The notes beneath the pieces were generated by a model. It did no database searches, was not told where the DNA came from, and saw nothing but the letters and a program-made list of their open reading frames with translations. Position numbers and translations under genes: made by a program. A stretch of 32,000 nucleotides of DNA, taken from NCBI RefSeq assembly GCF_021057185.1, contig NZ_CP054059.1:630001-662000 (forward strand), given 5' to 3'. Below, piece after piece: positions 1 through 31,113 of the stretch; within the stretch, counting starts at the first letter, position 1; the number at the start of each line of letters is the position of its first letter. The stretch is from Candidatus Absconditicoccus praedator (GTDB lineage: Bacteria > Patescibacteriota > Gracilibacteria > Absconditabacterales > Absconditicoccaceae).

Positions 1-2358
1 GAAGCTGAAGTTGGTGAAAACGATGATTTGATAGAAGAAATAGTATCAAATTTTTCATCTTCTGAATACAATGAGCAAGAGCTTTCTATAAGAATACTAG
101 AAGATTGAATAGAATTGTCTAATTGAAGACAAATAGACATCCAATATCTTGAAGAGCTCTTCGAGGGGAATCCAAGTAATAACCAAATAGTGGATAAATT
201 AAGTGATGACATTGGTCTTACAGAATCTTGAAAACAAAACCTTCTTGATCAATTAAATGAAGTAGATCAAACTTGGATGGATTCAAGAGATAAAATAAGG
301 GAATGAATAGTTGAAGATATAGAAGAAATGGTAGAAAAATATAATAACGAATCAACTTCCGAAGAAGAAAAACAGCAAATTGCACAAATTTTTGGAGTAG
401 AGTATCCAGATCCTATAAGTTGAGATATGATAGATATAGAAGAAAGGATGGAAGAGGCTGAGAAAAACTTCAAGAATTATATGAAAATGTCTGTTGTTTC
501 ATGATTTATAATAAGAAGATATATGCATGATAATAGCTCTAACAGTTTTTGGAGTAAATGACAATATGAATGAGATAGAAGGTTGGTAGATATTTATTGA
601 GATATTATGTGAGAGTGAAGGTTTAATATGTCTCAAAACCAAATAGATATAGCTTCTACTATAGCCAAAGAAGCAGGAATATTTTTAGTTACTTTACCAA
701 TATGAGGTTTGGCTATACATTGAGCAAGATGGGCTGTTACTTGAGCAAGAGCTTATAGGGCTGCATGATGAATTCAAAGATGATGACAATATATTTGAAG
801 GTGAGATAGACTTAGGAGAGCTTGGTGAGCAAGATGAGCGTCTGAGTTTATGCCTACAGGTAGGTTGTGAAGGTTTTGAATGTGATCACTTGAGTCTGTA
901 GCATGATGATCTGCTTTTATGGCATCTTATGATCAAATCAAGAACTTAATAGATGAAAATCATGAATTTGCTGGAGTCCCAGAATATATGAAGTCGGTTG
1001 TATTCTTTGGAGTTTTTAGAGCTTCTCAGGCTATTAGAAATATGCAAACATTATGAGGTAGATCAAATCCTTTCTACATATGAGAAAACACTTCAAGAGC
1101 TGCTGCCTGAGCGAAATTAGCATGATGAATTACAATAGAGGCTGGAGCTATATGACTTACCGCAGCTGGTATAGATGCTATTGCTTATGATGAAGACCTT
1201 GAGTTAAGTAAAGAAGAATTTTTGCTTTCACTAGCTTTGGTTTCTGTGTTTAGGTGAATAGATAGGACGTGAAGGTCTGAAGTAGTTAGAGTGTTTAGGT
1301 GACCAGATTGAAATTTGAGAGTTTGAAATGCTCAAAGGTGAGGTCAGGATCAAAGAGCTCCACAGCAATGACAGAGATGAAATCAGGAGTCTCCTCAATG
1401 AGCAAGACGTCCTAGAGAAAGTATAAATACTAATGAAAATAGGGTTCTATTGAATAATCTTGAAAGATGAAGAAATTATGATTTATGAGATTGAAGGGCT
1501 CTTAGAGTTACAGATGAAGGAAGGTATGTTCTTACTAAGCCTCATCACAGATCGGATGGAACAACCACTACAAGAGAGTTTGAGTATAATTCTGCTAGAG
1601 AGTTATTGAGTAATGCAAGGATAGATAGAGGTGCATTTTCTAATCTTGGAAGGGAAGTAATGAATAGAAATCGTGAAAGATTTTTGGGTAATTTGGAATG
1701 AAGAGATATTAGTATAGCTTGAAGTAGGTATAGAATAACAAGAGAATGAGATAATGTATATTTTAGAAATTCAAGTAATGGTGAAAGAATTTCTGCCGAA
1801 AGATTTATGCAACAGCACTGAGATGATTTGGTTAATAATTATATAAGAAACTTAGATACTAATGTCTCTGGAAGAATGTCTGATTCTCTTTCTTGAAGAA
1901 AATTATCAGAAGTTAACCCACAATTGTCAAATAATCTTGTTTCAAAATTTGGTCAAAAGGCTCGTGATTGGACAGTATGAAGGGGTATTAATGAAATTAG
2001 GCAAGTAATGAATACTGAATGATTTAGAGCCAAGTTAACTAGTTGAGCAAAATTTGCACTTACATGAAGAGCAAACCCAGCTTGAAAAGATTGGTGATGG
2101 ACTTGAGGTATATATGGATGATTGTTGTTTGCTCCATATTTTGCTGAATCAGTTGATGATAATTTGTGGGAATGAGATTATTTACAACGAATTACTTGAG
2201 ATCCTGAAGACTTATCTTTTGCTAGAACTGCTGTTGATACACTTGCTTTAAGGCATCTTAATGCTTTATGAGCTTTACTTGTTGTTTGAGCTAGTGAGCC
2301 TATTAGACAAATATGAGATGACGAACCTTCAGCAGAATGAGAATATACATTAGAATAA
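1..2358 (+). CDS. Large hypothetical protein, 5'-partial (at least 785 aa), with Gly/Arg-rich low-complexity core
   Basis: Frame 1 has no TAA/TAG from base 1 to TAA 2356-2358 but dozens of in-frame TGA, so it is open only if TGA is sense. No family recognised. Confidence 0.75.
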
Positions 2359-2382
2359 GAAATTTAAAATTAACAACAAAAA

Positions 2383-5196
2383 ATGCCTTTGGAAACTATG
2401 TGAGAAAGGCTTCTAGAACAGTCTTCATCTCCTGAAACTCAAGAAGAGCAAGAAAGAAGTGAGATAATAGAAAACATTAGAAGAGAACTAGATTCAATCA
2501 AGCAAAGTATTGAATCTTCTCAAGAACAGGATTTTTCTGTTAGAGAAGATATATTGAATTTCCTTGATAGATTCAATCAAAGTTTTTGAGATTCTGTACA
2601 GCAGATAGAACAAATCAAACATAATATAGAGTCCAAAGAATCCTTACAAATTGAAGATATACATCAAATAAATGAATTTTTAAGTTCTCTTACTCAAGAA
2701 CAAATAGACGGCTTGGAAGATGATAGGCTTGCAGAAGCATACAATACCTTACAGGATACATCTAGAGAGCTTTCAAATCTTGCAGAGGATGTTTCTTCTA
2801 GTTTGGATGAGTCAAGACAACAAGTTCAAGAAACAGCTAAAGGTAGTTGAGGTATATTTGGTTTTGTTTGATGATGGGTTGCCAATAAATATACAGAAAG
2901 GATAAATGATTGAAAATCAGTAAATAGCTGAATATGGTGAGTTTGATTGTCTGTTGTATGATGGTTTAATTCTGACTTAAAAGATTCAATACTTTGATAT
3001 AAAGATACAAAAAAAACTTATAGACAGGCTCAGGGGGAATTGCCTGATTGAGATGAAGCTGCTGAAGTTACTCAAGAAAAAATAGATGAATTTAAAGAAA
3101 ATTTTAAATCTTCTGTAAAGGAAAAGTTGGAAGAAGAGTTTTGAGTGGATGTAGATGATGAAAAATTTGAGAGAGCATTTTCAAGATGGCAAGAAAATCA
3201 TAACTTTTCAGAGCATATATCAGATAAGTATGATGAACTTCATGAAGCAATGTACTGAGAGTGAAGTTTTAATACGATGTGAGAGCTTTTTGATACTGTG
3301 CTTTATTGACCAAGAGCTTCAATTTGACTTATTTTGGAACTTAGAAAAGAGTGACTTATATCTCTTAGACAAATTTGATTTACTACAGTAGAAAAGTCTT
3401 GACGCTTGGTAGTTCAATTTTGAAAAAATTCTGCATGATTGGTGTCAAATTGAATAGAAACTATCTTTGGTGAGATGGAGATGGATGATTTTATTGATTA
3501 TGTGAAGCAGACTTACTGAAGCTTTGAAGAAATGGATGGTGCAAGCAGAGAAGCAATTCTTGGAATGCTTTATAGGCATTGATGAGTGGTGCATACATTG
3601 TTTCGTGGTATTTGAAATGCTTTTGGTCACTTGATTACCGCTCCTATACAGGTATGAGATGATATAAGTAAGCTTAGAAATGTTAGTTGACATTTTATGG
3701 ATAGTTTAAGCTCCCAAATGGAGGCATGGGATAGGATATCTACTGCTTTTTGAGATTCAGGTAGTGCACTTTGAGCTGATTGAGAACTTAGGTCTTATTT
3801 CCAAAGAATAAATACAAATGTATCTTTGTATCATGCTATTAGTACTGCTTCTGACTATGATGATTTTATAAGAAGAGCAAGTTCTCTTGGTATAGATAAT
3901 GTAGATGAAGCTTTGAGACAAATATGAACTGATGAACTTCCTTCAAGAAGTAATTTTTCTGAATACAAAAGATCTGTATGAAATCGTTTGTGATGATGGT
4001 TTAATGATTTTTGAAATAGAGTACAATCTACTTATTGAGGTTCTCTTTGAAATATACAAGCTTATGTACCAGGTAGTGTAAACAATGAAGCAAGAAGGCT
4101 ATGACAATTCTTGAATAGGTATTGAAACCTTTCTCAAAAAATTATAGACAATGACAGTGTTGTTTCTCGTCTTAGAAAGTGGTTATATCATACTGAAAGA
4201 TCTTTTCAGTCTGCAGAAATGGCTGATATAAATAATTCTGCTCGTTTTTATCTTAATTCTATGGATGATATTCAAGATTTTACAAGAGATCTTAGACATA
4301 TAGCTCGTACCGTTCCAGAAATGCTTGGACATTTTGCCTGAAATATTCCCTTAATAATGCTTGGTTCTGAATTAAAAAATAAACTACAAGATCCGGAAAG
4401 TAGAGAATTTTGAGAGATAATGAGAACTATTGGTTATGTTTTCCCTTTTATTTGACCAGCATTGTTAGTATGAGAGTGATTTAGTATAAAAGATTGAGAA
4501 ATAAATAGTTGGTGAATGGCTTGAGCTTGAGTTTTTATAGCAGGTGTAGATATGTATTTTGTAGTGAAAGATATTCCAAATCACTGACTTTTAAGATCTG
4601 TTGGTAGACATTTTGCTACTCCAGTGACACAAGCTTCAAGGTTTTTTGCTTCTTTGCCTCGTGCCTCATATGATATGTATCATTTTAGTAGGAAAACCTG
4701 AAGAATGGTGGCAAGTAGAGGGGTTGGAAGTCTTCTTAGAGAAGCTGTAGAAACTTCTTCAGGTCGTAGTTTTTTGAGAAGGTGAGCCCTGGCTTGAGCT
4801 TTGATAGCTGGTTGATACTATCTTGTTAATGAATATTTTGATAATGATGAACTTCCTAGAGAAGTTAGAGATAAAATGGATGATCCAGAAAAAATGGATG
4901 AAGTAATAGATGAGCTACGAACTAATTTTTCAAAAGAAGAAAAAAAGGAGGCTATAAAATATGCTATAGTAATTAGACTTTGAGTAGATCCATCTGAAAT
5001 CAATAATTCAAGTTTTGAAGTAGATTTGGAGGAAGATGATTGACAGATAAGTTTAAGATATAAGCTACCATATAGTTGGTTTGGATATGAAGATGAGGAT
5101 GAAGCTGATGATATAGATGAATCAATACTTTCTTCTCAAGTTGTATCTGATAATGTTAGTGATATTGTTAATTATGTTTGAGAAAATGATAAATAA
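2383..5196 (+). CDS. Large hypothetical protein (937 aa), coiled-coil/acidic N-terminus, Gly-rich hydrophobic segments near C-terminus
   Basis: ATG 2383 to TAA 5194-5196, length divisible by 3, TAA/TAG-free with many in-frame TGA. It starts 25 nt after the previous stop. No family recognised. Confidence 0.75.
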
Positions 5197-12438: not shown

Positions 12439-12957
12439 ATGAATAAAGAAAGAATATTTGAAGTTGCAGAAGAACATTTTTTTGCAAAAAGGTATACCGA
12501 TGTAAAACTTGATAATATTGCCCAATCCTTATGAATAAGGAAGCCGAGTTTGTATTATTATTTTTTTGATAAAAAAGATTTATTTATACAAACTCTTAGG
12601 TATTCTATGAATAAATATCTTGATGAACTAAAAAAAGTATCAAAAAAAGATGATTTGTATGAGTTTATAAAATGGTATCTAGTATATCCTTCAGAAAATA
12701 AAAACTTATTTGCAGTTGCATTTCAAAAATGATATTGTATTGACGAGGATGTTAACTCTACAATTTTTTCTTGAAAAATGATAGTGGAAAAAACTATCAA
12801 TCAATTCCTATCTGATTTTGGATGAGCACCGGTTAAAAAATATCTTATAATTAATATGTTGGAAAAGCTTGCTCAAGATAATTGTGTTGATTGATATTGT
12901 TTGATGTATGATATAGATTCTATTTACTCTCAGATAAAAAAATTTTTAGAAGTCTAA
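12439..12957 (+). CDS. TetR/AcrR family transcriptional regulator, 172 aa
   Basis: N-terminal HTH: IFEVAEEHFFAKRYTDVKLDNIAQSLGIRKPSLYYYFFDKKDLF. Confidence 0.8.
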
Positions 12958-13072
12958 TTTTTTATTTTAAAGAATTTGCTATAACTACAAAATTAATTTT
13001 ATATACTATATTATTTGATATTTTAAAAAAAATTCTTAAAATTGATTAAGATTTAAACATAAAAAAAAATAA

Positions 13073-13516
13073 ATGAGAGTTTTTGTGCCAAGGCATATTG
13101 AATGATGAATGTTTAATATGAACTTGTCTTTGGGGCCTTTGAATATTAGTATGATTCAACTTTTTATACTTGCAATATGAGTGGCTATATCATTATCTTT
13201 GTGGAACTGACTTACCAATGCGTGACTTGATAATACAGTTGCAGCAATTTTAGTAGCACCAATAGTAATTATATTCATTTTCGTTGCATTTTTTAAGATG
13301 TCTGAATTGACTTTGTTGCCATTTATAGCTAAACTATTAAGAACATACTTTTTTGATGCTACCAAAAAATACTATGTAAACTGTAAAAAAGTGGATCCAA
13401 TAGAGGTTATGAAAAAAAAGATAAAACAGTGAAAACCAGAACAGAAAATTCAAGAAAAAAAACCTATGCAAATAGATCAAGAAAAAATGAGAAAGCTTGA
13501 CTCTCTATTAGAATAG
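13073..13516 (+). CDS. PrgI-like (type IV secretion VirB3-like) membrane protein candidate, 147 aa
   Basis: MRVFVPRHIEGG..LSLGPLNISMIQL, followed by two TM helices and a Lys-rich tail. Resembles the PrgI family N-terminal signature (VP-x-x-I...GPL...Q). Confidence 0.45.
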
Positions 13517-13664
13517 TTTTTATTTTTAAAAAATATTGACAATGTATGTCAACTCCATTATTGTGTATTATATACAATTTTAAGATTTAGAGATGTTTTT
13601 TGTATTCGAAGTTTGTGGTTTGTGATGAGAATAGTTGATATTTATTTTTACTATAAATTGAATT

Positions 13665-14102
13665 ATGAAGTTTTTTTGAAAAAATAGGTTGAGTTTGAGA
13701 CTTGAAAACACAAGGCTTTTTTTTTCAGGAAAAGAAAAAATTGAAATGAAATTTAAAAAAAAGGCTTTTGATGTGATAGCTACAGAATCTGATGTTCAAA
13801 AAACTAATGCAGTGTATATATTAGAAAACTGATTTGATATGTGAATGATAAAATATTTAATTGTATGAAACACAATAAATGTTTATTATCTTGAAATTTA
13901 TGATGAAGAAAAAGTAAATTATTATCTAGGAAAGCTGGTAGCAGTTGTAGAAAATATTGCTAAAAAAGAAAAATTGCAGTATATCTATTTTATAAATATA
14001 AAATGAACTGAAAACTCTCAAATATTTGGTGATTATTATGTAGGTTTGATAGATGATGCTGATTGATATCCTATGCTTGTAAAAATTAGAAAAATGTTTT
14101 AA
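13665..14102 (+). CDS. Hypothetical protein, 145 aa
   Basis: Table-25 ORF from ATG 13665 to TAA 14100-14102. A TTGACA box lies about 130 nt upstream. No family recognised. Confidence 0.55.
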
Positions 14103-14195
14103 ACAATGTCAATCTTGATTATATAAAATCTATTGAAATATATATTGATATAAATAGTATGGAAATTGTTATTTTAACTTTTAAATAAATATAGT

Positions 14196-14717
14196 ATGTC
14201 AGAAGAAAATAAAAACAATCAAACTAATAATTCTATGCTAACTGGAATTATTATGACTATTGTTGTATGTAGTGTTATTATAATAGCAGCTGTTTATTTT
14301 ATATTTGATATGAAGGCTCAGGAAATTAAACAAGAGGTTGCTCATCATAATATGTTGCAGCTTGGAGGTGAGGAAAATTATGAGGTGGCAAAATCATTAT
14401 TTACTTCTGAATGATTTCAGCAAATGATAGCTGAACAACTTGAAATGGAAAGACAACAAATAGAGTGATGAATGTGACAAGAACAAATGATGCCTCAGTG
14501 AGAAGAAGAAATGATGCCAGAGTGAGAAGAAATGGAGCAGCTAGAAGAAATGTTACAAGATGAAGAACAAATGCAAATCGAATTGGATGAAGAAGATTTG
14601 ATGGAAGAAGGTCCTGAGGATGAAGAACAGATAGAAGAATGAGCTGATGATGAAGTACAAATTGAGATGAATGAAGAGGATATGATGGAAGAAGATGTAG
14701 AGGATTTAGAACAATAA
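14196..14717 (+). CDS. Single-pass membrane protein with extremely acidic Glu/Met-rich tail, 173 aa
   Basis: The track ORF 14196..14414 continues through TGA codons to TAA 14715-14717. One TM (LTGIIMTIVVCSVIIIAAVYFIF), then a repetitive E/M/Q-rich region. Followed by a terminator. Confidence 0.7.
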
Positions 14718-23918: not shown

Positions 23919-25230
23919 TTGAAGAGGGTCACCCCAGTCTTGTCCGAAACATTGATTTTATTATAAAAAAAGCTATAAGTATAGCATTTAAAATAATAAA
24001 ATATATTTAAATATGGAAGGAATTAATGTAAAACAGATATTAGAAATAATACCTGATGAATTTATAGAAAAATTAGAAAAAAACTGTAATATAAATCATC
24101 AAGTTAAAAAAATGAGTTGAAAGGTAATGTTTAAACTGTTATTAATGTGAATATTAGATTGAGATAATTTAACACAAAGAACATTAGCATCAATATATAA
24201 CAGTCCTGAATTTACTCAATATGCAGATAAATGAGAACAACAAACAAGACATACAACTATAAGTGATAGACTTATAAACATGGATTATAAATTCTTTGAG
24301 AAATTGTTTGAAGAAATAAGTAAAAAGTTTGAAAAAGTATTAAAAATATGAGCAACAAAAATGAAGGTGGTGCTAAAGAGATTTGATTCTACATTAGTTT
24401 GAATATCAGAAAAACTACTTAAGTTTTGAATAAAAGCATGAAGTCCAGATGAAAGACATATAAAATTTACAGTCTGATTAAAGTGATTGTTGCCAAATAA
24501 AGTTTCAGTTTATGAAGAGCAAAAAGCAAGTAGTGAAGATGTAGCATTATGAGAAACTATTTTACAAGAGACAACATCTAAAAATCAAATATTATTATTT
24601 GATAGATGAGTTCAAAAAAGAGAAACTTATTCAAAGCTAATAGATAAAAATACAAATTTTGTAAGTAGATTAAGACAAAATACTAAGTATCAAGTTATAA
24701 GACAAAATAAAGAAGTAGAATGAATAAAAGTATGAAATTTAGTGTTAGAATGTGATGAAATAGTAAAATTATATTGAAAATGATGAGATATATTAGAAAA
24801 AGAATTAAGATTAATAAAAGCAATAAATCAAAAAAATGAAGTATTTTTATTTATAACAAATATGTATAATTTCACAGCAGAAGAAATAACAGAATTTTAT
24901 GCAAGGAGATGGGATATAGAAGTATTTTTTAGATTTATAAAACAAGAATTTTGATTTAGTCATTTTGTATCAAGATCAAAGAATTGAATAATGAATATGC
25001 TATATATGACACTAATAACATCAATACTTGTAATAGTATATAAATCAAAAAACAGTATAAAATCCTACAAAGAAGCTAAAAGAAGATTTATTGCTGAATT
25101 AGATGAATTAATTTTAATTGAGCTAGCAATAGCAATCTGAGGAGATGTTGATCTTCTTAAAAAGAAATATTTAAATTATTATAAATACTCTTAATAAGGT
25201 TTCGGACAAGACTGGGGTGACCCCCTTCAA
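23919..25230 (+). mobile_element. IS4-family insertion sequence (1312 bp)
   Basis: 32-bp terminal inverted repeats with one mismatch: TTGAAGAGGGTCACCCCAGTCTTGTCCGAAAC (23919-23950) and the reverse complement of 25199-25230. They flank one transposase ORF. The GC-rich ends stand out from the AT-rich background. Confidence 0.85.
24013..25194 (+). CDS. IS4-family DDE transposase, 393 aa
   Basis: KRFDSTLV, LLFDRGVQ (DRG with TGA Gly) and EITEFYARRWDIEVFFRFIKQEFGFSHF (the Y-x-x-R-W-x-I-E signature). Many in-frame TGA. Confidence 0.85.
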
Positions 25231-25373: not shown

Positions 25374-27248
25374 TTAAACAGTTTTTAGCATTTCTTCCAG
25401 TCTTGCATCTGCAATAGATTCTTCTGAATTATTTTTTTGAAAATCAAATTCTTCTTTTCTATAAACTGAATCTACAAAATTGGAAAATTTATTTGCATCA
25501 AAACTTTCTCTTCCATCTTTGATAACTAGAAAGTTTTCTACAAATCACATATACTCACTACTATCATCTGGTTTTTGAAAAGCATCAAGCATGGATTTCA
25601 TATTTTCATCTGGTAAAGAGTCTTTTTCACCAAATCATGCCAAAGCATCAAAATTCATTCTTAATTGTTGTGCTTCATCAGGAGTTTGTCTATCCAAAGT
25701 ATTTTTCATAATATCTGCAAACCTAAACATTTCAGGATTTGATTCTTGGGTAAGTTTTTCTCCGTTTGCATAAGAGATAGCATCACTTGGTGGTTGATAA
25801 TGAGAAATTATTCAATTAGCTGAACTAATCTTTTGTACATTTGCATTTAGCATAGATTGAGAAAATTTATCTTGGTTCTCTTGTATAAAAGAATCAAACT
25901 TTTCTGATGTAGCAGATCTAGCATTTTCCAAAAGCTCATCCGGATTTGAACTATCAGTTGCTATTTCTCATACAAAATTGGAATCTATTTGATTTGTAAA
26001 ATCACTCAAAGACAAGACATTTATTCATTCTAGTTTTTCTTTGGATGCTTGTAATGCTCATTCTTGAGAAGATAAAAAATTTGTCACAAACAATTCTCAC
26101 TTGGAATTTACTTCCAATTCACCATTAGCATCTCAGATTTGAAACTCCATACTATAAGAACCATCTGAATGTATTTCTTGGTTTTGGACTTGCATCTGAT
26201 CAGCTGTGTTTTCAAAATCTTGAAAAACTGATAGTTTATCAGATAGATATTCTCAATATTTTGTAAGCATAGTATTATTTATCTCAAATTGGGTATCAGC
26301 AATAGCTTGGTCTGTATCATCAAACTTTTCAAAATCTTGTCTATTGATATCCAAAGAATTATTGGCTACAAACTCATCTGCTCATTCTGATTGATTGATG
26401 GATTTGTCCAAATTGCTAGCAGTAGCATTGTCCAAAAATCACAACTTGGATGATAATTCTTCATAAGATTGATTAAATTCAGCAGCTTGTCTTTGTAAGT
26501 TTGGATTTGAACTTCCAGCAATGATATAATGAGTAGCCATCACAGTAGCTACCTCATCTGAGTCAATTCATTGATTTTCAAGCTCTGCAATTCTTTGTTC
26601 TCACATAGACTCCAGAGCATTTTGTTTTTCTTCTTCAATATTTTCAAACTCATCAGGAAATTCTTGTTGAAGTTCTTTTGCCTTATCATGAGTTTCTTGT
26701 AACTTTTCTCTTGTTTCAATTAACTCTTTATTTTCTTCTTTTACTTCTTGTTGTTTTTCTTCTACTTCTTCTTTTTCTACTTCTACTTCTTCTTTTTCTT
26801 CTTCTACTTCTTCTTTTTCTTCTTCTACTTCTTGTTGTTCCATATTATTTAATTCTTTCAAAACAAAAGACCTTATATTTCATTCATTTTCTGAATTTAA
26901 TACTCAAAACATTCCTTCTATTGTCCTACCACCTGTTTCTTCTTCAAAATTGTTCAAAAATTGATTAATATATTCTGGCTGAGTATCCAATTCTGCAAAC
27001 CAACCAAGAAAAGTTTCTCCTTTTTCTCTGTCTATTTCCATTACTTCTTTGAAATTTTGTTGGAGTTCTACCTTTATCTGATCATCCATATTTTCGTGTC
27101 TTTGATCTATTTGTTCTACTAGATTATTTACTACTACAAAATCATTGGCTTGCTCTAGCTTTTCTTGTCATTCAATATCTTCTCTTTGGTCTTGTGATTC
27201 TCAAGATTCTATTTCTTCTACTCTAGGTCATACTTCTGGATTTTGCAT
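25374..27248 (-). CDS. Acidic coiled-coil protein 'X1', 624 aa, function unknown
   Basis: ATG 27248 to TAA 25374-25376, length divisible by 3. It incorporates track ORFs 26904..27089 and 26601..26861 joined through TGA codons. Contains an EEEKEEV heptad array. No TM and no family recognised. Confidence 0.75.
26741..26835. repeat. 21-bp periodic tandem repeat inside X1 (EEEKEEV heptads)
   Basis: About 4.5 imperfect units of ttcttctacttcttctttttc on the plus strand. Confidence 0.7.
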
Positions 27249-27258
27249 TTTTGTTTTT
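26977..27258. repeat. Dispersed/tandem duplication, copy 1 of X 5' region
   Basis: Near-identical by eye to 28163-28446 (scattered single-base differences). Confidence 0.85.
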
Positions 27259-27268
27259 ATTTAGAATT

Positions 27269-28033
27269 TTAATTAATTTTGCTTAAATAATATTCTCTAT
27301 CATTTTCAGAATAGTTATTCTCAATATATTCTATAATATCACTTTTATATATATCAATACTATTACTCCAAGAATCTATTTCTTCAGTTGAAAATACTCA
27401 TCTAGATTTAACAAAATCAAAATTTGCCTCATACCAATTTAGATTATCCCTTCTTACATTATATGCATCTATTGCTTCTTCAATATCAGCATTTCATTGC
27501 TGCCATTCCAGTAAAACATTAGTTGCTTCTTGTCATCTATTAAGTCTATCATTAAGCTCTTTAGAGATATTTAAATCCTCTTGTGCTTCTTGTGCTCTTT
27601 CTTGTGCTTCTTGTGCTCTTTCTTGTGCTTCTTGTGCTCTTTCTTGTGCTTGTTTTCTTTCTTCTCTTGTCTCTTGATAACTATCTCTTGCTTCTTTCCA
27701 ATCATCTTCTCACCTACTATCATCTTCAGCCGCTTTTTCAAAAGGATTTGCATGAGCTGGTGGTATCACAAAATCTACTCATTTTGCTAGCATAGATTTT
27801 ATTCATTCCGATATTCTATCTCATACTCATTGTCTTTCTACTTGCTCCAATACTTCTGATTCTGGTATTGATACAGCTTGTCAATTCTCCAAATTTTTTC
27901 AATCTCAAATCTGTATATTCAATGCCAAAAGTGCCGCTGCCGCACTTGTCAGTACTGTATTTCTTAGTCATTTGGATTCTTTTTCTTCTATTTTATCCCT
28001 TGTCTCAGGTGTTTGATTCATTTTTTCTGTCAT
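27269..28033 (-). CDS. Membrane-anchored coiled-coil protein 'A1', 254 aa, function unknown
   Basis: Has one N-terminal TM (LRNTVLTSAAAALLALNIQIG) and a conserved 95-aa N-terminal region. These are followed by a (QERAQEA)x3 heptad array and a W/Y/N-rich C-terminal domain. Lies 20 nt upstream of X1. Confidence 0.7.
27580..27660. repeat. 21-bp tandem repeat inside A1 (QERAQEA heptads)
   Basis: cttgtgcttcttgtgctcttt x3 perfect (27580-27642) plus a degenerate fourth unit. Confidence 0.9.
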
Positions 28034-28127
28034 GAGTATTTTGTGTTAGGAAATTAAAGTTAGTTTGATTATTAATCAAATTTATCATTATGTCAAGTAT
28101 ATTTGTTTTGGGTGGATTTGTCAAATT
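27750..28127. repeat. Duplication, copy 1 of A 5' half plus promoter
   Basis: Near-identical by eye to 28841-29217, with roughly 20-25 single-base differences over about 375 nt. Confidence 0.85.
28069..28124 (-). promoter_or_regulatory. Tandem sigma70-like promoters plus palindrome upstream of A1
   Basis: On the minus strand: TTGACA (28124-28119), 17 nt, TATACT (28101-28096); and TTGACA (28096-28091), 16 nt, TAATAA (28074-28069). The palindrome TTGATTA-T-TAATCAA (28065-28079) overlaps the proximal -10. Confidence 0.5.
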
Positions 28128-28434
28128 TTGAAAATAATATTTTGCTTGGACAAATCATTTTTGGCTGAATATCCAATTCTGCAAACCATCACAAAAACAT
28201 TTCTCATTTTTCTCTGTCTATATCCATTACTTCTTTGAAATTTTGTTGGAGTTCTGATTTTGTCTGACTATCCATATTTTCATGTCTTTGGTCTATTTGT
28301 TCTACTAGATTGTTTACTACTACAAAATCATTGGCTTGCTCTAGCTTTTCTTGTCATTCAATATCTTCTCTTTGGTCTTGTGATTCTCAAGATTCTATTT
28401 CTTCTACTCTAGGTCATACTTCTGGATTTTGCAT
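28072..28434 (-). pseudogene. Truncated paralog of X1 (first ~92 codons conserved, then reads into the A1 promoter)
   Basis: ATG 28434. About 280 nt are near-identical to 26977-27248, and homology ends at about 28163. The frame then runs through the promoter sequence to TAA 28072-28074. Confidence 0.6.
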
Positions 28435-28446
28435 TTTTGTTTTTGT
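28163..28446. repeat. Duplication, copy 2 of X 5' region
   Basis: Near-identical by eye to 26977-27258. Confidence 0.85.
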
Positions 28447-28461
28447 CTAAATTATATGAAA

Positions 28462-29124
28462 TTATATTGTTTGCCTTTGTTCTTCTATCCATTGTCTTTG
28501 CTCTTGTATCCAATCAAAATCAATTTCATCAGAGTATTCTTTATTCTCTTCAAACCATTGTAAATTATTCTCCATTGTATTTATTGCTTCAAAAGCTTCA
28601 GACCTTGATGCATTTCAATTTCTATATTGAGTTAGTATATTTACCATTTCATTATCTTCTTCTAATCTCTCTCACATTTCTCAAGTCATTTCTAATCCTT
28701 CTCTAGATTGTTCTAATTCTGATCTAGATTGTTCTAATTCTGATCTAGATTGTTCTAATTCTGATCTAGATTGTTCTAATTCTTGTTGAGATTCTTCATA
28801 CTGTTCTTTCATACTATCATCTTCTGCTATATCGTCCCATGCATGAGCTGGTGGTATTACAAAATTTACTCATTTTGCTAGCATAGATTTTATTCATTCT
28901 GAAATTCTATCTCATACTCATTTTCTTTCTACTTGCTCCAATACTTCTGATTCTGGTATTGATACAGTTTGTCAATTCTCCAAATTTTTTCAATCTCAAA
29001 TTTGTATATTCAATGCCAAAAGTGCCGCTGCCGCACTTGTCAGTACTGTATTTCTTAGTCATTTGGATTCTTTTTCTTCTATTTTATCCCTTGTCTCTGG
29101 TGTTTGATTCATTCTTTCTGCCAT
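28462..29124 (-). CDS. Membrane-anchored coiled-coil protein 'A2' (paralog of A1), 220 aa
   Basis: The N-terminal 95 aa are almost identical to A1. Next comes a (ELEQSRS)x4 heptad array and a diverged but alignable C-terminus (NILTQYRNGNA..EAINTMENNLQWFEEN against NVLLEWQQGNA..EAIDAYNVRRDNLNWYEAN). Confidence 0.7.
28702..28785. repeat. 21-bp tandem repeat inside A2 (ELEQSRS heptads)
   Basis: tctagattgttctaattctga x3 perfect (28702-28764) plus a fourth unit with changes at its end. Confidence 0.9.
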
Positions 29125-29217
29125 GAGTATTTTGGGTTATGAAATTAAAACTTACTTTGATTATTAATCAAATTTACCATTATGTCAAGTATAAATTTTT
29201 TGGGTGGATTTGTCAAA
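28841..29217. repeat. Duplication, copy 2 of A 5' half plus promoter
   Basis: Near-identical by eye to 27750-28127. Confidence 0.85.
29161..29216 (-). promoter_or_regulatory. Second copy of the tandem promoters plus palindrome, upstream of A2
   Basis: Minus-strand TTGACA boxes at 29216-29211 and 29188-29183, with TATACT (29193-29188) and TAATAA (29166-29161). The palindrome TTGATTATTAATCAA lies at 29157-29171. Confidence 0.5.
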
Positions 29218-29219
29218 TA

Positions 29220-30059
29220 TTACTTAGTTGCAATAAATAGTAAAGTATTTCATCTAGAAGCTAAATTTTCATCATATAAATTGCTATACTCTAAGTCTAA
29301 AATTTTATTAAAAGTATTTTTATCTTTTAAAATGTTATATTTTTGTTCATTTTGTCATTTTAGAAATGTTTCTTCCATTCAAGGATATATATAATTTAAT
29401 AGTCAATAAACTTTCACTTCTTTAAATCAATTATTCTTAAAAAGATTTCTTAATTCATCTGGGGTAAAGCAATGCATATAAGGCATTAAATCGTTAAATC
29501 TAATTTTATTATTATTTATACTATCTAATTCATTAATTCTATTCGTTAACAACGAAAAATAATAAGAATGATGTTTATTTCAAACTATTCAAATATATTT
29601 TCATCAATCATTTAATTTTTTATATACTTCTCATATAGCTGTATTATAATCATTTACAAAACTTAATACATTATAAAAAGAAATAGCAAAGTCATAATAA
29701 TTATTTATATAATCATCTAGATTTTCAATATTTCATACTGAACTTTTAAAATTGTTTTGAATTCTTAATTTTTTAATTTTATTATCTGCTTCATCAAGCA
29801 TTTCTTTTGTAATATCAATTAAATCGGCTTTTAATTCTACTTTATTTTTTAATATTTCATAAAAATTTAAAGCCCATCTTCAAGTTCAAGCTCACGCATC
29901 TAATAATTTTAGTTCATTTTTTTGATTTTCTTTTAATATATCTATTAAAAATTTTTTAGCTAATTCATCTGATAAAACCCAATATAATTGTTCATCGACT
30001 AGATCATATTCAGAAGCTTTTTTAGAAAAATAACTTGTTACATCATTATAATAACTCAT
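29220..30059 (-). CDS. Class I SAM-dependent methyltransferase, 279 aa (alternative start at 30104 gives 294 aa)
   Basis: MSYYNDVTSYFSKKASEYD; motif I LLDAGAGTG encoded GAT GCG TGA GCT TGA ACT TGA; LNDGGKYIGIV. Track ORF 29892..30104 is its N-terminus, cut at the first TGA. Confidence 0.8.
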
Positions 30060-30084
30060 AAAAAAATAATTAAAAAATAAAAAA

Positions 30085-31113
30085 CTATAAAACTCAGGAT
30101 TCATTAATAAAAACTTTTTGATTATCCATATCCAAAGTTGTTTCTGCTCACATTGGTATCACAAACATAGGATCTGTATGTCCAAAATCCATATTTGTAA
30201 TTATTGGTAAATTATCCAAACCAAATTCTCACTTCACTATTTTCAAAATAGATTCATTATAATTTTTTTCATCTTGGGCTCTTCATACAATTATTCAATT
30301 TATATTTTCCAAAATTCATTGCACTCACATAGTTCTCAAAATTCTTTCAAGATTGCCTTCAGATATATTTTCTTCAGAAGTTTCAAAAAACATTATTTTT
30401 CATTTCCATTCATCTGCAGTTGGCCAAAGTTCTGTTCACCACATAAAATAAAATACATCTATACATCATCACAATAATTCTCATTTAATAAGTCAATTTC
30501 ACTGCAAAAATCTCCATCATGTATTAGGATTTAATTTTCTTTTTATATTAAGATTTTCTGGATTTCACCAATCTAAAAATTCGTTAGTCCATCAATTAGT
30601 ATTTGGTTTGATTTCTCAAATTATGTTATTATTAAATAATGTTTTTTCTACGCTTTCTATCATGTATTCAAACATTCCTGCATTTTCTGCAAATCAAGCC
30701 ATGATTGCTGGTCAATAATAACTCCTCAATCATGCTTTGTAGCAAATAAAATGCGTGATAGTACTATCAGAATATCACATATAAATTTTTGGATTATTCC
30801 TAATAATATTAAAATCAATGTATGGTAATATTCTAATGCTGTCATCTCATCAAATACTTGAAAATATTGCATCAATACTTGAATCTAAAAATGCATTCAT
30901 CAAGTCTTCTGCTCTTTTTTTAGGATTATTATAAACAAATCAAGGATCTTTTATTGTATTTTCCATTTCAATTATTTCTACTCAAAAATGTTCTTTTAAT
31001 TGTTTGATTCAATTGTTATATCTATAAGGGAAAGTTCCAGGTCATCACCAAGAACTACTAACTACAGCTATTTTTGATCATTTTTTTAATTTTTTAGGGA
31101 TTTTAAAAATCAT
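30085..31113 (-). CDS. S66 family LD-carboxypeptidase (LdcA/MccF-like serine peptidase), 342 aa
   Basis: IAVVSSSWGG; AIFSSIGGDDSIRILPYID; nucleophile motif IYMGYSDSTITH; LLGGCIDV; MFFETSEE; NMDFGHTDPMFVIPMG (Ser-Glu-His triad context). Confidence 0.85.

Follow-up and report, generated by a model that had tools for sequence, protein, structure and literature searches.

Two neighbouring copies of the same pair of genes that match closely over some segments and poorly over others raise a question: what process changes one part of a unit and leaves the next part nearly intact? We examined a locus of this kind in a stretch of 32,000 nucleotides (the window, whose coordinates are used throughout; positions 630,001 to 662,000 of contig NZ_CP054059.1) from the closed 1,129,696-bp genome of Candidatus Absconditicoccus praedator, a cultivated epibiotic predator from the CPR (candidate phyla radiation) that is obligately contact-dependent. 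An earlier sequence-only reading of this DNA had supposed an episymbiotic lineage, which is what an epibiotic CPR predator represents. On the minus strand the locus has the order promoter, A2, truncated X, promoter, A1, X1, where A and X are two protein families. The best explanation, to which we assign a probability of about 0.6, is that A is an exported family of N-terminally anchored helical stalks with exchangeable heads, diversified by homologous recombination.

Conserved flanks and divergent cassettes

Read with table 11 the locus breaks into short open reading frames (ORFs), and with UGA as a sense codon it consists of long genes; over the whole window, table 11 gives 12 ORFs of at least 100 amino acids versus 76 under tables 4/25. 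The DxGxGxG motif of the S-adenosylmethionine (SAM)-dependent methyltransferase gene next to the locus (29220–30104, minus strand) provides a clean internal proof of the code: all three glycines of its DAGAGTG sequence are encoded by UGA, and therefore code 25 (UGA = Gly) is used in the window. Read with this code, the gene order claimed by the sequence-only reading holds, and all four genes stand in order in the NCBI annotation (UFX83120–83123). A2 (28462–29124, 220 amino acids) is followed on the minus strand by the truncated X (28072–28434, 120 amino acids; P0010/UFX83122), whose homology to X extends over codons 1 to ~93 (28159–28434), after which the frame enters the next promoter cassette. 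Then come A1 (27269–28033, 254 amino acids) and X1 (25374–27248, 624 amino acids; P0001/UFX83120), which encodes a soluble protein with no signal peptide. The promoter/leader cassettes of A2 (29125–29221) and A1 (28034–28163) carry an identical pair of predicted 11/12 sigma-70-like sites, overlapping at 29216–29188 and 29188–29160 in the former and located at 28124–28096 and 28096–28068 in the latter. The window contains exactly two occurrences of this promoter pattern, versus 0 expected from shuffled sequence.

By BLASTN comparison of the region with the window we found two repeated blocks, and no further copies of either in the 32 kb. The first (28840–29221 versus 27749–28129; 382 nt, 94.8% identical) contains the conserved 5' parts of A2 (28840–29124) and A1 (27749–28033), which are codons 1–95 in each gene and in A2 include the core ...GDRISEGIKSMLAKGV.FVIPPAHA. 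The second (28159–28456 versus 26973–27271; 299 nt, 92.3% identical) comprises, in its X1 copy, the A1–X1 spacer and codons 1 to ~92 of X1. These are the conserved blocks of the sequence-only reading, with their boundaries shifted by only a few bases. In a global alignment scored in 30-nt windows, 26–30 of 30 positions are identical in the blocks versus 5–21 of 30 in the middle 390–490 nt, where there are many indels and identity per window is about 25–65%. This middle part corresponds to a variable cassette that runs to the stop codon of each A gene. In A2 (28462–28839) the cassette consists of a WDDIAEDDS linker, an MKEQYEESQQ module, an ELEQSRS heptad array and a C-terminal helical domain of type beta; in A1 (27269–27748) it consists of an NPFEKAAEDDS linker, a RGEDDWKEARDSYQETREERKQA module, an AQERAQE heptad array and a C-terminal helical bundle of type alpha. 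Underlying the heptads are 21-nt tandem arrays, with 4.5 copies in A2 (28690–28783, one heptad per unit, 95% matches) and 3.5 copies in A1 (27579–27651, 100% matches). The 3' halves of A1 and A2 are ~45–50% identical, and their translations contain the shared motifs previously listed for them (AEDDS, heptad arrays, G-N-A and N-L-x-W-x-E).

Substitution rates differ in the same way along the unit. Between A1 and A2, codons 1–95 have a synonymous divergence (dS) of 0.089 and a ratio of nonsynonymous to synonymous divergence (omega) of 0.25, and the two copies of the 5' part of X have dS 0.177 and omega 0.29. In the A1 and A2 cassettes, dS is saturated (~1.0) and nonsynonymous divergence (dN) is 0.78. 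To put these values in context we used related loci, numbered L001 onwards, on contigs from ENA/Logan metagenomes; the orthologous X of the nearest relative, L001, has a dS of 0.12 from that of this genome. Flank dS (0.09–0.18) is therefore similar to orthologue dS, and no homogenisation of the flanks is needed. The sequence-only reading had argued that uniform drift after a duplication would not give such a pattern, and the identity profile and the per-segment dS and dN values do exclude it. As for the two alternatives it offered instead, we favour cassette exchange acting on the C-terminal part of A, and we reject gene conversion of the 5' halves as the main explanation, since divergence of the flanks at the level of orthologues does not require it. 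The two copies are 100% identical only in the first 120 nt of X and part of the spacer, and this stretch is equally identical in L001, L005 and L009.

Exchange of modules among related loci

The cassettes of A genes are modular, and their modules recur across lineages in combinations that conflict. Following ...PPAHA there is either an NPFE.AAEDDS or a WDDIAEDDS linker, and following AEDDS either the RGEDDWKEARDSYQETREERKQA or an M[KQ]EQYEESQQ module, beyond which lie varied heptad arrays and at least five types of C-terminal domain. The linker region of A1 is 95–96% identical to those of L004 and L009, whose 5' parts are only 51–62% identical to A1, and codons ~75–110 of A2 are 91–100% identical to L001, L005 and L009. 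Breaks between modules recur after PAHA and after AEDDS, and N-terminal type (MTEK.. or MVEK..) and linker type are found in all four possible pairings. The demarcation between conserved and variable sequence is a recurrent break right after ...PPAHA (GCTCATGCA). For example, L002 and L003 represent the same dnaK-adjacent locus in two datasets and have 1 mismatch in 4,333 nt (99.98% identity), and they switch linkers (WDDI versus NPFE) directly after GCTCATGCA, which is also the breakpoint separating A1 from A2. A second switch is seen between L009 and L001, in which the 781 nt leading up to X codon 100 contain 5 mismatches; L001 then continues into a full X, versus a short-X stop codon, a promoter and a gene for another protein (B, described below) in L009. 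Alleles that are otherwise near-identical also differ in the number of copies of a 21-nt unit, GCTGAAGAAAGAGCACAACAA, which is present once in L005, L006 and L007, twice in L001 and three times in L009. Modules that are 95–100% identical across strains with 51–62% identical 5' parts, the four combinations and the L002/L003 switch bear out the suggestion of cassette exchange. As judged from these comparisons, there is good support for homologous recombination between units, both clustered and dispersed, at short junctions that are conserved, together with gain and loss of heptads.

The simplest alternative is a plain tandem duplication of a ~1.1-kb unit in which the 3' half of A diverged in place, through relaxed or positive selection and slippage, with no exchange. 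Such a history would fit the tandem layout with its q|p-type junction, and also the retention of the same architecture and motifs in the C-terminal halves, and repeats of 21 nt are intrinsically unstable. It does not fit the identity of 91–100% between modules of A1 or A2 and those of strains that are otherwise far more diverged, the existence of four-gamete combinations, or the saturated dS of the cassettes next to flanks with dS of 0.09–0.18. The upstream sequences point the same way. A promoter/leader of ~100 nt is conserved 5' of every A gene in the relatives, whatever sequence lies upstream of it. At A1 the promoter is preceded by a 34-nt extension (28130–28163; AAATGATTTGTCCAAGCAAA...) that is also found upstream of A in L005 and L008. 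It is absent 5' of A2, where the stop codon of the methyltransferase gene (g34) is situated 6 nt 5' of the –35 hexamer. On this comparison the 34 nt are ancestral A-upstream sequence, and their presence at A1 and absence at A2 do not fit an A2 unit that was simply duplicated in one step. With the same type of array also present in relatives, we consider divergence in place to be very improbable.

The arrangement of the genes varies among the relatives. L001 and L005 have a single A–X pair between genes for a penicillin-binding protein and an alpha-2-macroglobulin, L002 and L003 have a solo A beside dnaK, L008 has the array A, short X, A, short X, and L004 and L009 have A and short X followed by the anchored helical protein B and another acidic protein. 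Arrays are thus seen in independent assemblies, and both kinds of variation that the sequence-only reading proposed to look for in related genomes, in copy number (arrays, solo A genes, A–X pairs) and in cassettes, were found. Scans of metagenomes from the Joint Genome Institute (JGI) with the promoter pattern and the X N-domain, and scans of viral contigs, gave no relatives. The Ca. A. praedator genome itself has a third unit just outside the window, six gene accessions beyond A2, where the proteins and the order of their accessions place a third A paralogue, P0006 (UFX83129, 213 amino acids), next to a third X fragment, P0015 (UFX83128, 77 amino acids), which is cut at about codon 57. The tail of P0015 ("...CKFDKSKIKS") resembles that of the truncated X ("...SKFDKSTQNK..."), which is the translated TTGACAAATCC promoter, so by the likeness of these tails the third fragment probably also abuts a copy of the promoter. 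With a third unit outside the window and an array architecture common to relatives, the idea of a private ~1.1-kb duplication is not borne out. Comparison of these loci indicates instead that the locus is an ancestral array of promoter–A–short X units belonging to a lineage-specific family.

A false tandem array, made during assembly by collapsing or chaining strain variants or paralogues, could in principle mimic this arrangement: the repeated blocks are 300–380 nt long, and the metagenomic contigs of relatives break around such loci. We regard this as extremely improbable, however, given that the genome is a closed 1.13-Mb record in which NCBI annotates UFX83120–83123 in order, that the copies differ by 5–8% in the blocks and hence can be told apart, and that the A, short X, A arrangement is present in independent assemblies.

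The relatives also change how the truncated X should be seen. Their short X is an intact ORF of 99–103 amino acids that ends in ...QPEYINQFL[NS][NK]* and is followed by conserved downstream sequence. It exists in two types, ~65% identical to each other, and is under purifying selection (omega 0.29 between two type-2 copies, and 0.24–0.4 between the types at dS 0.6–0.9). Compared to these genes, the truncated X in the window has lost its last ~8 codons and stop codon through a deletion that joins CAGCCA to AAATGATTTG, a sequence found ~45 nt 5' of the promoter in L005 and L008. The sequence-only reading was thus right that X is truncated here, but rather than a mere by-product it matches an intact, constrained gene of relatives. 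Both short-X genes of L008 are followed (at ~640–700 and ~1790–1816) by a GC-rich element, GGGAAATCCTCCCTCCCACTGTCGTGGGGTCCCG, in a genome of ~28% GC. This element is absent from the junction in the window and may represent either a terminator hairpin or a small repeat.

Protein B (234 amino acids in L009, 885–1589; 2047–2564 in L004) is expressed from the same conserved promoter and is followed by another acidic protein. In L004, B shares the first ~13 codons of A (MAERMNKAPETRE) and is unrelated afterwards. Because B is driven by an A-type promoter, the promoter/leader cassette is common to different gene families.

These data can be assembled into a scheme in which the window holds two of three clustered units, each with a predicted strong and conserved promoter/leader, an A gene and the 5' ~100 codons of X, with the whole 624-residue X in the last unit. 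Each A would consist of a Sec signal peptide or N-in signal-anchor, the core to PPAHA, a linker, a stalk of 7-residue repeats and one of the alternative C-terminal helical heads. Recombination between paralogous units or alleles would swap modules. The promoter/leader and the core to PAHA would serve as homology arms, as would AEDDS and the spacer with the X N-domain. Gain or loss of 21-nt units would alter the length of the stalk heptad by heptad, and the internal short-X genes in this genome would have been shortened further by deletions ending just 5' of the next promoter.

Predicted properties of A and X

The A proteins have a polar N-terminus rich in lysine and arginine (K/R), a short Ala-rich hydrophobic segment (Kyte–Doolittle value KD17 ~1.7), a conserved core of ~45 residues to PPAHA, and the variable cassette. 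The hydrophobic segment is flanked by 5–6 K/R residues on its N side versus 0–1 on its C side in every A type, a distribution consistent with either a signal peptide or an N-in anchor that leaves the variable part outside. The membrane anchor that the sequence-only reading gave to A is thus supported as far as a hydrophobic N-terminal segment is present, but the segment is short and moderate, and a signal peptide and a signal-anchor are both possible. On these grounds we place the variable part of A, provisionally, outside the cytoplasm. The first 60 residues of A1, A2 and A3 contain neither a cysteine nor a lipobox. The C-termini are ...YIENNY (SENDREYYLSKIN), ...EEQRQTI or ...YIEANY, with no LPXTG motif. 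Most head types carry, at or close to their C-terminus, the motif D-[IY]-x-x-Y-I-x-x-N-Y (YIENNY, YIEANY, YINSNY or YIDANY; in the window at 27269–27330, and in P0005–P0009). A2 lacks this motif, and the domains that bear it are otherwise divergent; the motif could be a terminal interaction or sorting signal.

Structure prediction, which had been proposed as a check on the sequence-only reading, gave a helix plus a bundle for A1 and a helical protein with a beta meander for X. The AlphaFold2 model of A1, made from a 7-sequence alignment, has a mean predicted local distance difference test (pLDDT) score of 68; residues 1–109 are unconfident, residues 108–178 form a single 71-residue helix, and residues 184–253 form a helical bundle with pLDDT >90. 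Judging from the few core hydrophobic residues in its heptads (AQERAQE in A1, ELEQSRS in A2), the stalk may be a single alpha-helix rather than a coiled coil.

In X1 a conserved N-terminal domain of ~100 amino acids (26949–27248) is followed by a long helix whose E-rich heptad region is hypervariable, then by a helical body, and last by a C-terminal tail that varies. The AlphaFold model of the protein (pLDDT 77) shows a helical structure that contains a helix of 75 residues and, in the body, a beta meander of five strands. Outside the variable parts, the X genes of close relatives are 93–100% identical in DNA sequence. The hypervariable segment (codons ~120–210), which in X1 contains a 21-nt tandem array of 5.2 copies (26731–26840), is only 53–74% identical to L001, compared to 93–100% for the rest. 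In the last ~75 nt of X1, too, identity to the X of L001, which is near-identical elsewhere, is only 53%. The description of X as an acidic partner needs qualification, as its acidity is nothing special: 14 of the 36 window proteins have an isoelectric point (pI) below 5. X is conserved, stays beside A and is selectively maintained even as a stand-alone gene of 100 amino acids, yet it has no export signal. Its N-domain may be a conserved partner or docking module.

Neither protein matches a characterised family or fold, in agreement with the sequence-only reading, which recognised neither. Searches of Pfam, NCBIfam, PHROGs and PADLOC with A and X yielded only sub-threshold coiled-coil noise (Alanine_zipper at 19.9 bits versus a cut-off of 23.1, FlbB at 19 versus 110, and LmuB, JetC and tape-measure proteins at 12–19 bits), and there was no credible match to PDB sequences or, by Foldseek with the AlphaFold models, to PDB structures. 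X had only 10 relatives among 1.84 billion representatives searched exhaustively with HMMER, all of them in recoded genomes. In one of these, the distant relative L010 (21% GC), the X homologue adjoins a confirmed A homologue (hhalign probability 97%). By these matches both families reach beyond the genus, and A and X genes tend to lie side by side. L010 also has a gene for a 531-residue HEYGH (zincin-like) protein with no Pfam or NCBIfam match (12547–14142), located 13 nt after this A homologue, which suggests that A-type proteins pair with different downstream partners. Two further candidates were discarded: the 193-residue protein 5' of a distant X homologue in L011 is not supported as an A homologue (hhalign E = 0.23), and the partial 302-residue ORF 5' of A in L004, considered as X-like, has no phmmer match. 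We detected no relation to X for the proteins B, Y, g1 and g2 or the 531-residue protein.

The lack of an export signal in X leads to a different view of the pair, in which A and X would be intracellular, as a membrane-associated or cytoskeletal scaffold in which an E/R/K-rich single alpha-helix serves as spacer, and the variation would be neutral turnover of low-complexity sequence combined with recombination between paralogues. The adjacency of A and X suggests a common compartment, the hydrophobic segment of A is weak, the heptads AQERAQE and ELEQSRS are as poor in core hydrophobic residues as single alpha-helix spacers, and the variable region of X is rich in E and K. Set against this, the placing of K/R residues agrees with N-in/C-out for each A type, whole well-folded C-terminal domains (pLDDT >90) are exchanged so that variation extends beyond the repeats, and purifying selection on the conserved parts means that turnover is targeted. 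An intracellular pair is in our view unlikely.

Several points weigh against an exported stalk family. The hydrophobic segment of A is only moderately hydrophobic (KD19 1.29), the N-terminal half of the A1 model has pLDDT <50, and export is a prediction from arithmetic on K/R topology. X has no signal peptide or transmembrane segment, and a physical interaction between A and X would be at odds with the compartments predicted for them. The relatives are known from short metagenomic contigs; in particular, L002 stops 44 nt past the breakpoint, where an assembly-graph join to a paralogue is possible. Protein databases under-represent code-25 genomes, which weakens the statement that there are no homologues. 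Finally, nothing points to a programmed system of expression site and silent cassettes, since every copy is complete and has a promoter of its own.

If the variable part of A is indeed external, its topology, the pattern of variability and the lifestyle of the organism together suggest interaction with prey, phage or other outside partners as the driver of variation. A bolder version, which we think improbable, is that promoter–A–(short X) units achieve fast recombination-based switching of a prey- or phage-facing surface within populations, altering both head cassettes and the length of the stalk, with the X N-domain acting as both docking partner and downstream homology arm. It is hinted at because two contigs that are 99.98% identical differ in cassette, a between-sample difference. 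Were it true, this would be the first antigenic or receptor-variation system described in Patescibacteria, made from two protein families without known relatives.

The layout of the locus also brings to mind polymorphic toxins, with A as a delivery part carrying a variable effector after PAHA, the short X as an immunity or helper protein, and the extra units as orphan cassettes. As in CdiA-CT/CdiI and Rhs systems, a sharp and recurrent demarcation motif separates the conserved N-part from the variable C-part (PAHA in A, and VENN or PxxxxDPxGL in those systems), each variable end has a small gene after it, and there are additional units in tandem; the organism is, moreover, a contact-dependent predator. 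The downstream ORF is conserved here, unlike an immunity gene: the same type-1 X N-domain follows at least four types of A C-terminus (alpha, beta, gamma and epsilon) with no immunity-like co-variation. We found no toxin, nuclease or pore-forming domain, the heads being predicted to be small hydrophilic helical bundles, and the units are all full length and each has a promoter, which leaves no orphans. Nor does the window contain delivery machinery, such as type V, VI or VII secretion or Rhs/CdiA-type delivery domains. A toxin-like effector is accordingly a highly improbable explanation.

Comparison with known variable families and surroundings of the locus

Returning to exported stalks with exchangeable heads, we compared the A family with variable surface proteins of other bacteria. 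Proteins of the streptococcal M family are helical heptad-repeat surface fibrils with a conserved cell-proximal and a hypervariable distal part, encoded by recombining paralogues and subject to in-frame variation in repeat number. The A genes are like the M and M-like genes (emm, mrp, enn) in having an elongated heptad helix, variable distal heads, changes in repeat number and mosaic neighbouring paralogues. They differ in polarity, because the anchor of A is N-terminal (a signal or transmembrane segment) and not a C-terminal LPXTG; there is no match in sequence or fold, the heptads are so poor in core hydrophobic residues that a single alpha-helix and a coiled coil are equally likely, and each A is paired with an X N-domain gene. 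The vsp, vlp and vsa families of mycoplasmas are clustered genes with a highly conserved 5' region and divergent mature parts that contain in-frame tandem repeats. The A family resembles these families in its shared 5' region and in-frame repeats of variable number, and in being found in a reduced, host-dependent bacterium with a recoded UGA. However, A has no lipobox or Cys, each copy has its own promoter, no invertible promoter lies nearby, and UGA is Gly here and not Trp.

Variable segments between conserved homology arms, and mosaic alleles, are also features of Neisseria pilE/pilS, Borrelia vlsE and Mycoplasma genitalium MgPa/MgPar. The A locus differs from such systems in having no promoterless silent cassettes, each unit being a full promoter/leader with a complete A ORF. 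There is no site-specific (tyrosine or serine) recombinase in the window, only insertion sequence (IS) transposases nearby, and no significant inverted repeats frame the locus. With no invertase and no framing inverted repeats, we rejected an invertible shufflon. A diversity-generating retroelement was likewise rejected: no reverse transcriptase is present among the 20 window proteins scanned, and the variation consists of whole-module replacement and indels, not of A-to-N substitutions. The resemblance to M-like, Vsp/Vlp and gene-conversion systems is therefore one of logic only, as LPXTG, a lipobox, a recombinase and silent cassettes were all looked for and are absent.

Candidatus A. praedator is one of very few cultivated CPR/Patescibacteria, a group in which little is known of prey recognition and of how phages and prey defences are dealt with. 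A clustered stalk family with exchangeable heads and adjustable length is a candidate for the variable part of the predator–prey interface, and one that can be tested in co-culture. The Vampirococcus genome paper does not mention paralogue, tandem or hypervariable families, and as far as we found in the literature searched, a recombining family of variable surface-protein genes is undescribed in CPR bacteria. If A is a surface protein, mosaic recombination-driven surface-gene families such as those of streptococci, mycoplasmas and Neisseria would extend to ultra-small recoded bacteria.

The neighbourhood of the locus is ordinary chromosome, with genes for the methyltransferase, an LD-carboxypeptidase, a GGDEF protein and a LytR-Cps2A-Psr protein. 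Profile scans found no reverse transcriptase, invertase or secretion system in it, and the 32 kb contain no tRNA genes and no Rfam families at threshold. An IS4-type DDE transposase (PF01609, E = 1.6e-20; 24013–25194, plus strand) is located directly downstream of X1, and an IS1595-type transposase (PF12762; 18865–19560, minus strand) lies ~6 kb away. At the start of the window (1–5196, plus strand) are two large adjacent ORFs (>785 and 937 amino acids) with acidic N-terminal parts and Gly/Arg/Ala-rich hydrophobic stretches, which have no Pfam match and no detectable similarity to X, B or Y. The N-terminus of g2 (MPLETMGER...) resembles that of the acidic protein 3' of B in L009 (MPETMERPRE...), with no significant alignment. 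Gene g14 (14196–14717, plus strand) encodes a small transmembrane-anchored protein with a pI of 4.05 and a highly acidic, Met-rich repetitive tail (EEMMPEGEE...).

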